A DNA stretch of 39,034 nt from Shigella phage ESh1. Below, piece by piece: positions 13,100 through 19,931 of this stretch. How positions within the stretch are numbered: position 1 is the first letter of the stretch; each line of letters begins with the position of its first letter. The notes under the pieces were generated by a model. That model did no database searches. It saw only the letters and a list, made by a program, of their open reading frames with translations, and was not told the DNA's origin. The stretch is from the sequence record ON528715. One strand, given 5' to 3'. Both the position numbers and the translations under genes were made by a program.

Positions 13100-13357
13100 A
13101 TGGGACGTCTATATAGTGGGAACTTAAATGACTTCAAGGCTGCTTTCAACAGGCTCTACCAGTTGGACCTTGCTGTTATAGCAGTTGAGCAGGAAGGCTC
13201 ACCAAACATAAAGGCAACCATGTACCTTCGGATTGAAGACCGTGCTGGACGCATAATTGCTCAGGAAGAGATTCACCACTGCGACGAAGACGTTCTGTAC
13301 AATATATGCACTGCTTGGCTGAACCGTATGTATGACCAGTTGAAGGACTGGAAGTAA
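13100..13357 (+). CDS. 1.2: gp1.2, inhibitor of host dGTP triphosphohydrolase
   Basis: 85 aa; N- and C-termini (MGRLYSGNL.. and ..MYDQLKDWK) match T7 gp1.2, central region diverged. Confidence 0.8.
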   Translation: MGRLYSGNLNDFKAAFNRLYQLDLAVIAVEQEGSPNIKATMYLRIEDRAGRIIAQEEIHHCDEDVLYNICTAWLNRMYDQLKDWK

Positions 13358-13377
13358 TACGACTCACTAAAGGTAGA
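13355..13377 (+). promoter_or_regulatory. Phage RNAP promoter phi1.3
   Basis: TAATACGACTCACTAAAGGTAGA, overlapping the 1.2 stop. Confidence 0.8.
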
Positions 13378-13382
13378 ACCCA

Positions 13383-13796
13383 ATGAACGACATAAAGCGA
13401 TTCAACGATAAGACCGAACCGTGTGGTGATTGTTTGCGTTGGATTGGTAGCATCCAGCCTAATGGCTACGGACGGTTTCGCCTGCATGGTAAGCCTATGT
13501 ATGCCCATAGGGCTTCGTACATTCTGTTCAACGGTGAGTTGAATAATGGTGATGTAGTCCTACACTCCTGTGACAATAGATGGTGTGTAAATCCGGCACA
13601 CCTAATCAAGGGCACACAGGCAGATAACCTTATAGACATGGCTATCAAAGGCCGTGGCGCTAGAAAGATAACTAATGAGCAGGTCGAGATGATACGTATG
13701 GACCCTCGCTCCGGCAGGGAGCTAGCAAGGGTACTTAATGTAGCTGCTTCGACAATAAGCCACATACGAAACGGTAAACTGAGGAAATATATATGA
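13383..13796 (+). CDS. HNH-family homing endonuclease (free-standing), inserted between phi1.3 and the ligase gene
   Basis: 137 aa with N-terminal CGDCLRW and HNH core GDVVLHSCDNRWCVNPAHLIKGTQADN; stop overlaps ligase start (ATGA). No counterpart at this site in T7. Confidence 0.8.
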   Translation: MNDIKRFNDKTEPCGDCLRWIGSIQPNGYGRFRLHGKPMYAHRASYILFNGELNNGDVVLHSCDNRWCVNPAHLIKGTQADNLIDMAIKGRGARKITNEQVEMIRMDPRSGRELARVLNVAASTISHIRNGKLRKYI

Positions 13797-14875
13797 TTAT
13801 CAACTTTAAGACTTCACCATACAAGGCAGTATCTTTCGTAGAGTCTGCCATCAAGAAAGCTCTGGATAACGCTGGGTATCTTATCGCTGACATTAAGTAC
13901 GATGGTGTCCGTGGTAACATCTGCGTAGACAATACCGCTAACTGCTGCTGGCTCTCTCGTGTATCTAAAACGATTCCGGCACTGGAGCACTTAAACGGAT
14001 TTGATGTTCGCTGGAAGCGTCTGCTGAACGATGACCGTTGCTTCTACAAAGACGGCTTCATGCTTGATGGGGAACTCATGGTCAAAGGCGTAGACTTTAA
14101 CGCAGGGTCCGGCCTACTGCGTACCAAATGGACTGACACCAAGAACCAAGAGTTCCACGAAGAGTTATTCGTTGAACCAATCCGTAAGAAAGATAAGGTT
14201 CCCTTTAAGCTACACACTGGACACCTTCACGTCAAACTGTACGCTATCCTCCCGCTGCACATAGTAGAGTCTGGAGAAGACTGTGACGTTATGACGTTGC
14301 TCATGCAGGAACACGTTAAGAACATGCTGCCTCTGCTACAGGAATACTTCCCTGAAATTGAGTGGCAAGCGGCTGAATCTTACGAAGTATACGACATGAT
14401 TGAACTCCAGCAATTGTACGAGCAGAAGCGAGCAGAAGGCCATGAGGGTCTCATTGTGAAAGACCCGATGTGTATCTATAAGCGCGGTAAGAAGTCAGGC
14501 TGGTGGAAAATGAAACCTGAGAACGAAGCTGACGGTATCATTCAGGGTCTGGTATGGGGTACAAAAGGTCTGGCTAATGAAGGCAAAGTGATTGGTTTTG
14601 AGGTGCTTCTTGAGAGTGGGCGTGTAGTTAACGCCACGAATATCTCTCGCGACTTAATGGATGAGTTCACTGAGACAGTAAAAGAGGCCACCCTAAGTCA
14701 ATGGGGATTCTTTAGCCCATACGGTATTGGAGACAACGATGCCTGTACGATTAACCCTTACGATGGATGGGCGTGTCAAATCAGCTACATGGAGGAAACA
14801 CCTGACGGCTCTCTACGTCACCCATCGTTCGTAATGTTCCGTGGCACAGAGGACAACCCTCAAGAGAAAATGTAA
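13793..14875 (+). CDS. 1.3: ATP-dependent DNA ligase (gp1.3)
   Basis: 360 aa with adenylation motif IADIKYDGVRG; otherwise near-identical to T7 ligase. Confidence 0.95.
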   Translation: MIINFKTSPYKAVSFVESAIKKALDNAGYLIADIKYDGVRGNICVDNTANCCWLSRVSKTIPALEHLNGFDVRWKRLLNDDRCFYKDGFMLDGELMVKGVDFNAGSGLLRTKWTDTKNQEFHEELFVEPIRKKDKVPFKLHTGHLHVKLYAILPLHIVESGEDCDVMTLLMQEHVKNMLPLLQEYFPEIEWQAAESYEVYDMIELQQLYEQKRAEGHEGLIVKDPMCIYKRGKKSGWWKMKPENEADGIIQGLVWGTKGLANEGKVIGFEVLLESGRVVNATNISRDLMDEFTETVKEATLSQWGFFSPYGIGDNDACTINPYDGWACQISYMEETPDGSLRHPSFVMFRGTEDNPQEKM

Positions 14876-16176: not shown

Positions 16177-16472
<296 letters not shown>

Positions 16473-16475
<3 letters not shown>

Positions 16476-16495
16476 TACGACTCACTATTAGGGAG
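16473..16495 (+). promoter_or_regulatory. Phage RNAP promoter phi2.5
   Basis: TAATACGACTCACTATTAGGGAG, overlapping the gene 2 stop. Confidence 0.8.
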
Positions 16496-16549
16496 GGAAG
16501 ACCCCCCCCCCTTTGAGAAACCAAATGAAACCTAAAGGAGATTAACATT

Positions 16550-17248
16550 ATGGCTAAGAAGATTTTCACCTCTGCGCTTGGCATCGCTGAACCTTACGCT
16601 TACATCTCTAAGCCGGACTACGGCAACGAAGAGCGTGGCTTTGGGAACCCTCGCGGTGTCTACAAAGTTGACCTGACTATTCCCAACAAAGACCCGCGCT
16701 GCCAGCGTATGGTCGATGAAATCGTGAAGTGCCACGAAGAGGCTTATGCTGCTGCCGTTGAGGAATACGAAGCTAACCCGCCTGCTGTAGCTCGTGGTAA
16801 GAAACCTCTGAAACCGTATGAAGGAGACATGCCGTTCTTCGATAACGGTGACGGCACGACTACCTTTAAGTTCAAATGCTATGCGTCTTTCCAAGACAAG
16901 AAAACCAAAGAGACCAAGCACATCAATCTGGTTGTGGTTGACTCCAAGGGCAAGAAGATTGAAGACGTTCCGATTATCGGTGGCGGCTCTAAGCTGAAAG
17001 TCAAATACTCTCTGGTTCCGTACAAGTGGAACACTGCTGTGGGTGCCAGCGTTAAGCTGCAACTTGAATCCGTGATGCTGGTCGAACTGGCTACCTTTGG
17101 TGGTGGTGAAGACGATTGGGCTGACGAAGTTGAAGAGAACGGCTATGTTGCCTCTGGTTCTGCCAAAGCGAGCAAACCACGCGACGAAGAAAGCTGGGAC
17201 GAAGACGACGAAGGCTCTTACGAAGAAGACTCAGACGGAGACTTCTAA
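16550..17248 (+). CDS. 2.5: Single-stranded DNA-binding protein (gp2.5)
   Basis: 232 aa with acidic C-terminus ...DEDDEGSYEEDSDGDF; matches T7 gp2.5. Confidence 0.95.
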   Translation: MAKKIFTSALGIAEPYAYISKPDYGNEERGFGNPRGVYKVDLTIPNKDPRCQRMVDEIVKCHEEAYAAAVEEYEANPPAVARGKKPLKPYEGDMPFFDNGDGTTTFKFKCYASFQDKKTKETKHINLVVVDSKGKKIEDVPIIGGGSKLKVKYSLVPYKWNTAVGASVKLQLESVMLVELATFGGGEDDWADEVEENGYVASGSAKASKPRDEESWDEDDEGSYEEDSDGDF

Positions 17249-17704
17249 GTGGCTGGCGCATACGCTGCGCGTGGTATCAGAAAGGTCGGGACATTCCGTT
17301 CCGGCCTAGAAGATAAGGTCTCTAAGCAGCTAGAGGGTAAGGGCATTAAGTTCGACTATGAACTGTGGAAAATCCCTTACGTTGTCCCTGCGAGCAACCA
17401 TGTGTATACTCCAGACTTCCTGCTGCCTAACGGAATCTTTATTGAAACCAAAGGTTTATGGGAGAGTGACGACCGAAAGAAACACTTACTGATTCGCGAA
17501 CAGTTTCCCGAACTGGACATCCGTCTGGTGTTCTCAAGCTCACGCACTAAGCTGTATAAAGGGTCTCCTACCAGTTATGGTGAGTGGTGTGAGAAGCACG
17601 GTATTCTGTTTGCTGACAAATTAATTCCTGTAGAATGGCTCAAAGAACCCAAAAAGGAGGTGCCATTTGACAAGCTGAAACAATCGAAGGGAGGAAAGAA
17701 ATAA
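17249..17704 (+). CDS. 3: Endonuclease I, Holliday-junction resolvase (gp3), GTG start
   Basis: 151 aa (M)AGAYAARGIRKVGTFRSGLEDKVSKQLEGKGIKF.. matches T7 endonuclease I; begins directly after the 2.5 stop. Confidence 0.85.
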   Translation: MAGAYAARGIRKVGTFRSGLEDKVSKQLEGKGIKFDYELWKIPYVVPASNHVYTPDFLLPNGIFIETKGLWESDDRKKHLLIREQFPELDIRLVFSSSRTKLYKGSPTSYGEWCEKHGILFADKLIPVEWLKEPKKEVPFDKLKQSKGGKK

Positions 17705-18159
17705 TGGCTCGTGTACAGTTTAAACAACGTGAATCTACTGACGCAATCTTTGTCCACTGCTCGGCTACTAAGCCAAGTCAGAATGTAGGAGTTCGCGAGA
17801 TTCGGCAGTGGCATAAAGAGCAGGGTTGGCTTGATGTAGGGTATCACTTTATCATCAAGAGAGATGGTACTGTGGAGGAAGGCCGAGATGAGATGGCTGT
17901 AGGCTCTCACGTTAAGGGACACAACCACAACTCTATTGGCGTCTGCCTTGTAGGTGGTATCGACGATAAAGGTAAGTTTGACGCTAACTTTACGCCAGCC
18001 CAAATGCAATCCCTTCGCTCACTGCTTGTCACACTGCTGGCTAAGTACGAAGGTGCTGTGCTTCGGGCGCATCATGATGTGGCACCTAAGGCTTGCCCAT
18101 CGTTCGACCTTAAGCGTTGGTGGGAGAAGAACGAACTGGTCACTTCTGACCGTGGATAA
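17704..18159 (+). CDS. 3.5: Lysozyme / N-acetylmuramoyl-L-alanine amidase, RNAP inhibitor (gp3.5)
   Basis: 151 aa MARVQFKQRESTDAIFVHCSATKPSQNVGVREIRQWH.., as T7 lysozyme. Confidence 0.95.
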   Translation: MARVQFKQRESTDAIFVHCSATKPSQNVGVREIRQWHKEQGWLDVGYHFIIKRDGTVEEGRDEMAVGSHVKGHNHNSIGVCLVGGIDDKGKFDANFTPAQMQSLRSLLVTLLAKYEGAVLRAHHDVAPKACPSFDLKRWWEKNELVTSDRG

Positions 18160-18160
18160 T

Positions 18161-18183
18161 TAATTAAACTCACTAAAGGGAGA
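18161..18183 (+). promoter_or_regulatory. Phage RNAP promoter phi3.8-like
   Basis: TAATTAAACTCACTAAAGGGAGA followed by ACCACAACGGTTTCCC; here it directly precedes gene 4. Confidence 0.75.
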
Positions 18184-18215
18184 CCACAACGGTTTCCCTT
18201 TGTTCGCAATGTTGA

Positions 18216-19931
<1,716 letters not shown>

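Follow-up and report, generated by a model that had tools for sequence, protein, structure and literature searches.

The gene 2.5/gene 3 junction of a 13a-like Teseptimavirus is probably an unoccupied junction of the family type with an abutting GTG start, and not a loss of gene 2.8

The gene 2.5/gene 3 junction in the window (the whole stretch of DNA analysed here, 39,034 bases, the circularly permuted genome of a phage of the T7 group, Teseptimavirus) is most likely a normal, unoccupied junction of that group and not the outcome of a derived loss, and it would be T7 that carries a mobile HNH insert at this place. Over the region 16400-18300, which matches 630 phage records, Shigella phage ESh3 shares 98.4% identity with the window and the Escherichia phages C5, N30 and 13a share 95.0-95.6% (13a, EU734174, 95.0%); the window is a Teseptimavirus of the 13a/ESh3 type. 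The consensus of T7-type promoters is present 10 times on its + strand. Promoter phi2.5 drives the 2.5-3-3.5 transcription unit, whose features are the following:

16473-16495, + strand: promoter phi2.5, T7-type class II (TAATACGACTCACTATTAGGGAG), assigned by leader alignment and by the same sequence being annotated as phi2.5 in 13a and T7
16550-17248, + strand: gene 2.5, single-stranded DNA-binding protein, 232 aa (Pfam PF21265 SBB_T7, E 8.8e-90), ending in TAA at 17246-17248
17237-17240, + strand: Shine-Dalgarno (SD) sequence GGAG of gene 3, within the Asp-Gly-Asp(-Phe) codons of gp2.5 and 8 nt 5' of the GTG
17249-17251, + strand: GTG start codon of gene 3, abutting the gene 2.5 TAA (spacer 0 nt) in the same frame
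17249-17704, + strand: gene 3, endonuclease I (Holliday-junction resolvase), 151 aa (PF05367, E 6.7e-82, near full length)
17704-18159, + strand: gene 3.5, amidase/lysozyme (Pfam Amidase_2, E 2.5e-17)

The three genes form a tightly packed unit 3' of phi2.5, with TAA directly followed by GTG at the first joint and TAATG at the second, where the gene 3.5 ATG shares one base with the gene 3 TAA; neither a T7 promoter nor a + strand terminator was found between phi2.5 and the end of gene 3.5. Gene 2.5 is preceded by the SD AAGGAG (-8.7 kcal/mol), and its product is 97% identical in amino acids to T7 gp2.5 and has an acidic C-terminal tail ending in DGDF. The SD of gene 3.5, GGGAGGA, lies within the end of gene 3 and is strong (-11.3 kcal/mol).

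Two side observations concern the same unit. A run of ten C at 16502-16511 (GGGAGGGAAGACCCCCCCCCCTTTGAG), in the transcribed leader just 3' of phi2.5, is the sole homopolymer of at least 8 C/G or at least 9 A/T in the window, and the same position reads ACTCCCT or ACCCCCT in ESh3, 13a, T7 and the other relatives in which the phi2.5 leader was found; the run could lengthen the stem-loop at the 5' end of the phi2.5 transcript (-9.9 kcal/mol, vs -5.1 in T7) or could be a homopolymer sequencing error. In another frame of the + strand, a Lys/Thr-rich ORF of 70 aa (17097-17309) extends over the codons for the gp2.5 acidic tail and into gene 3, and T7 has a similar one; most likely this ORF simply results from the GAA/GAC-rich codons of that tail, with no sign of being a gene.

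The product of gene 3 belongs, as judged from its profile match, its predicted catalytic residues and its gene position, to the phage endonuclease I (T7 gp3) family. Residues 1-149 match positions 1-148/149 of the profile PF05367 Phage_endo_I with 272.9 bits (cut-off 29.1), and the T7 endonuclease I structures 2PFJ, 1M0D and 1FZR are matched as well (best E 8.4e-87, for 2PFJ), all these Pfam and PDB matches beginning at residue 1-4. The predicted catalytic residues E21, D56, E66 and K68 align with 2PFJ, a K67A mutant chain, and correspond to E20, D55, E65 and K67 of the T7 enzyme. The gene is flanked by gene 2.5 (SSB) and gene 3.5 (amidase), an order shared with 13a and T3, where it follows gene 2.5 directly, and also with T7.

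The original prediction had placed the gene 2.5 stop at 17246-17248 and the start of gene 3 at an abutting GTG at 17249, and this reading was confirmed. Both genes are in one frame (positions 16550 and 17249 each leave a remainder of 2 on division by 3), and an upstream in-frame start for gene 3 is impossible because the codon before GTG 17249 is the gene 2.5 stop in that same frame, which disposes of the upstream in-frame ATG that had been named as evidence against the call. Downstream, the gene 3 ORF contains no in-frame ATG, as had been anticipated, and the next in-frame GTG is codon 52, 3' of the catalytic E21, so that a start there would remove this residue; no other start codon is thus credible. 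The GGAG element forms a duplex of -6.6 kcal/mol with the 3' end of 16S rRNA, and relatives also have GGAG or GAGG. The N-terminal peptide AGAYAAR is identical in the window, in T3, where the aligned start is the ATG of a TAATG overlap, and in the close relative L020, where TAA is directly followed by ATG. Taken together, the reading frames and alignments make GTG 17249 the sole plausible start of gene 3, and the call is sound. It is also already in public annotation: in the curated 13a record and in ESh3, the annotated gene 3 begins at the same GTG, directly after the end of gene 2.5, and the layout is hence already known.

In order to place this junction among its relatives, IMG/VR was sampled twice, with the window gp3 and then the T7 gp3 as seeds, since the first sampling, based on window-specific peptides, missed the T7-like alleles. 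The resulting census comprises 116 loci with a gp2.5 homolog upstream of gene 3; the contigs were picked by peptide patterns and include many close relatives, and the counts below are not independent events:

TAATG overlap, as in T3: 52 of 116 loci
TAA directly followed by GTG: 15 of 116 loci
TAA directly followed by ATG: 3 of 116 loci
2-nt gap, GTG start: 10 of 116 loci
2-nt gap, ATG start: 2 of 116 loci
other small junction variants: 3 of 116 loci
HNH gene between genes 2.5 and 3: 10 of 116 loci
larger gap without an HNH match: 21 of 116 loci

Genes 2.5 and 3 thus abut with no spacer in 18 of the 116 loci and are 2 nt apart in 12. An insert-free tight junction was found in about 82 of 116, across divergent backgrounds in which gp2.5 identity falls to about 50-60%, and 15 of the 21 loci with a larger gap form a distant group whose gp2.5 match is merely 26-30% identical. 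GTG starts of gene 3 recur in several lineages, as TAA-GTG and as TAA plus 2 nt plus GTG (four different N-termini), amounting to 25/116 loci. The curated 13a genome has GTG starts in 5 of its 55 CDS, including gene 3 and the essential gene 19, and of its 48 consecutive gene junctions 13 have a 0-nt spacer or an overlap. Across the sampled loci, a tight 2.5/3 junction is therefore the norm of the T7 family, with GTG starts being routine there; tight junctions being generic in these compact genomes, the abutment alone is no sign of special regulation.

The named phages agree with this picture. In 13a and ESh3 (ON528717) the junction is identical to that of the window (GGAGACTTCTAA GTG GCTGGCGCATA...), with the order 2.5-3-3.5, without 2.8 and with gene 3 starting from the abutting GTG. 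T3 (NC_003298) likewise lacks 2.8 and has gene 3 directly after gene 2.5, with the N-terminus MAGAYAAR and an SD-like GAGG in the gp2.5 tail; unlike in the window, its ATG shares one base with the stop (TAATG) and gene 3 is in another frame, the window having one extra G (TAAGTG) that keeps both genes in the same frame. T7 (NC_001604) resembles the window in the gene 2.5 tail, in the TAA with the GTG next to it, in the catalytic residues of an endonuclease I that is 86-87% identical, and in the TAATG overlap of genes 3 and 3.5. It differs in that the GTG abutting the gene 2.5 stop (...GGAGACTTCTAA GTG GAA CTG...) opens gene 2.8, while gene 3 lies 400 nt downstream. Gene 2.8 has 139 codons, in agreement with the approximate length of gp2.8 given in the original prediction, and encodes an HNH protein (HNH_3, zf-His_Me_endon). 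Close to its 3' end (GGGAGGCGACATG), GGGAGGCGAC ATG GCA GGT supplies a strong SD (GGGAGG, -11.7 kcal/mol) and the ATG of gene 3, which overlaps the end of 2.8 by 20 nt. Aligned with the window, T7 thus has 400 nt inserted precisely after the start codon of gene 3 and before its second codon. Gene 2.8, a mobile HNH homing-endonuclease gene by this comparison, takes over the GTG at the gene 2.5 stop, and its 3' end gives gene 3 a new SD and an ATG.

The same arrangement was observed in all seven HNH-bearing loci that were read base by base (T7, L028, L038, L039, L043, L086 and L087): in 7/7 the HNH gene begins at the gene 2.5 stop, abutting or overlapping it, in the forms TAA-GTG, TAA-ATG, TAATG or TTGA, and gene 3 has its own ATG in 7/7, preceded in most by an SD-like purine run in the 3' end of the HNH gene. 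Short 2.5/3 spacers in three further loci are, from the residual coding they retain, remnants of degraded 2.8-family homing-endonuclease genes. L042 keeps 45 nt between 2.5 and 3 (1956-2000) that encode the C-terminal motif ...STISNIKGGK, and in L195 (1968-2000) and L200 (about 1945-2000) the initial 8-18 codons of the HNH gene (M.LKEKLE...) persist, fused next to gene 3. In the window junction, neither a 2.8-type HNH gene (tblastn with gp2.8; spacer 0 nt) nor an HNH remnant was found.

Nearly all HNH-bearing loci have a gene 3 with the N-terminus AGYGAKGI, and T7, L086, L087 and L028 share 27-30 of its first 30 nt. The idea of an immunity allele, that is, a cleavage-resistant gene 3 allele travelling with the HNH gene, was dropped, as 28 insert-free loci carry AGYGAKGI too; the association largely reflects clade membership, and T7 gene 3 resembles that clade.

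The original prediction had further proposed that gene 3 is translationally coupled to gene 2.5, with an effect on the dosage of a toxic resolvase, and coupling is plausible in view of the arrangement of the junction. Both genes are on one mRNA, with no promoter or terminator in between; the gene 3 start follows the gene 2.5 stop with a 0-nt spacer, and its signals are weaker than those of T7 (GGAG, -6.6 kcal/mol, with GTG vs GGGAGG, -11.7 kcal/mol, with ATG). As gp2.5 would be heavily translated and the signals of gene 3, a GTG and a 4-base SD, would be weak, much of the initiation at gene 3 would probably be due to ribosomes that have just terminated at the TAA, or to ribosomes whose passage along gene 2.5 opens the region, and coupling of this kind would give a low supply of the toxic nuclease tied to that of gp2.5. 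An RNA structure that enforces the coupling found no support: the predicted folding energy of 17195-17305 (111 nt, -31.5 kcal/mol) equals the mean of shuffled sequences (z = 0.00), and the acidic-tail codons account for a small hairpin at the SD.

The alternative that survives best, although we consider it doubtful, is that gene 3 initiates independently at GTG 17249 through its own SD and that the abutment is mere genome compaction. GGAG at a spacing of 8 nt is a workable SD, the z-score above gives no significant RNA structure that would occlude the site, and abutting or overlapping junctions as well as GTG starts are common in 13a. Against this, the gene that follows 2.5, be it gene 3 or an HNH gene, starts between -4 and +2 nt from the stop in most loci, and gene 3, where it has been displaced, has a much stronger SD and an ATG, which suggests that the position at the junction aids initiation.

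As for the direction of change, an ancestor with the T7 order 2.5, 2.8, 3, from which the lineage of the window deleted 2.8 so that gene 3 gained a GTG coupled to 2.5, is improbable. In its favour, the reference genome T7 has 2.8 at the junction, HNH genes do get lost there (the remnants in L042, L195 and L200), and a precise removal, by recombination with a phage lacking the insert, would leave the junction unscarred. It is opposed by the preponderance of insert-free tight junctions over the 10 HNH-bearing ones in divergent backgrounds, and by the lack of any spacer or remnant in the window. Moreover, T7 2.8 itself uses the TAA-adjacent GTG, and an insertion after a pre-existing TAA-GTG is simpler than a deletion that recreates it. 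A further argument against a loss comes from the comparison with T7 in 60-nt windows with the insert removed, where nucleotide identity is 90-100% in gene 2.5, 67-82% in gene 3 and 85-100% in gene 3.5: because gene 3 diverges between conserved flanks, the 2.8-plus-3 segment of T7 looks like an imported block. Seen from the window, gene 3 (17249-17704) is a mosaic block relative to T7 (L005, 1558-2007), with sharp boundaries at both gene junctions. The loss of 2.8 that had been proposed for this phage is thus not supported by the comparative data, with the insert-free junction as the family norm and T7 as the insert bearer.

The least credible possibility, that read-through of the single TAA between two genes in one frame yields a functional gp2.5-endonuclease I fusion, is hardly worth retaining: the frame is not conserved, since gene 3 is in a different frame at the TAATG (52 loci) and 2-nt-gap junctions, the window junction shows no read-through signal, and a TAA stop with a G after it terminates efficiently in E. 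coli.

Gene 2.8 had been described as absent, and this is correct for the 2.5/3 junction; elsewhere in the window, however, there is a gene of the 2.8 family:

13383-13796, + strand: free-standing HNH homing-endonuclease gene of the T7 gp2.8 family, 137 aa (tblastn; Pfam HNH_3)

A 2.8 homolog elsewhere had been named beforehand as evidence against the original prediction, and this gene is one, as a paralog at a different site and not a relocated 2.8. Its product is 38-39% identical to T7 gp2.8 (39% over 120 aa in tblastn, E 1.7e-19), matches HNH_3 with 34.6 bits (cut-off 24.8) and aligns with the HNH proteins of the 2.5/3 junction, sharing with gp2.8 the invariant H, C, D and N columns. The gene occupies the 1.2/1.3 junction: phi1.3 (13355-13377) lies just 5' of it, and on its 3' side comes the ligase gene 1.3 (13793-14875), whose ATG at 13793 overlaps the HNH stop codon. 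Its distribution among near-identical genomes is patchy: 187 phage records match the region, and a query cover of at least 80% is reached only in ESh3 and Yersinia phage WW2, the third record reaching 79%. 13a shows the opposite pattern to the window: its HNH gene 3.8 lies between 3.5 and 4, and it has none at 1.2/1.3. In Cedecea phage Yanou (locus L241) an annotated HNH gene (1494-1943) lies between 3 and 3.5, and the abutment of 2.5 and 3 is kept; this makes 3/3.5 a third HNH insertion site within the 2.5-3-3.5 unit. Relatives therefore carry such genes at the 2.5/3, 3/3.5 and 3.5/4 junctions, and the ORF of the window is alike to T7 2.8, 3.8 and 7.7, which are free-standing homing-endonuclease genes at junctions, but does not lie at 2.5/3. 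From their distribution, these HNH genes appear to behave as sporadic mobile inserts at gene junctions, with a predicted homing activity.

A literature search on gene 2.8 or on 2.5/3 coupling retrieved one relevant preprint, in which 2.8, 3.8 and 7.7 were deleted together as homing endonucleases in a T7 delta-3HE phage (bioRxiv 10.1101/2025.09.07.674715); a search on the start-codon usage of gene 3 retrieved nothing.

A broader reading, which we put forward tentatively and hold to be rather doubtful, is that the gene 2.5 stop and the start next to it serve as a reused landing pad, into which 2.8-family HNH genes would repeatedly enter, capture the coupled start and re-equip gene 3 with a strong SD and an ATG. 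Endonuclease I would then alternate, according to whether an HNH gene is present, between a weak GTG coupled to gp2.5, as in the window, and a strong, autonomous ATG, as in T7, which would affect how much of a toxic resolvase is made. On this reading, the recurrent GTG starts of gene 3 could reflect selection for low initiation.

The junction itself has little value as a discovery, and its significance lies in annotation and in the reading of T7 as a reference. In 13a-like phages, the call for gene 3 has to begin at a GTG immediately adjacent to the gene 2.5 stop, and some records mislabel or omit gene 3: in the relatives HZ2R8 (MG832642), NC-A (MK310182), N30 (MH717098) and JB01 (MW074885), gene 3 is given as a hypothetical protein or the endonuclease is unlisted, which may be due to the GTG touching the previous stop. 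For the family as a whole, T7 would not represent the ancestral layout at 2.5/3, and differences from T7 at gene junctions would often reflect mobile HNH genes in T7 and not losses elsewhere. The pair formed by T7 and a 13a-type phage offers a natural contrast for the way in which start-site context may set the level of a toxic nuclease.
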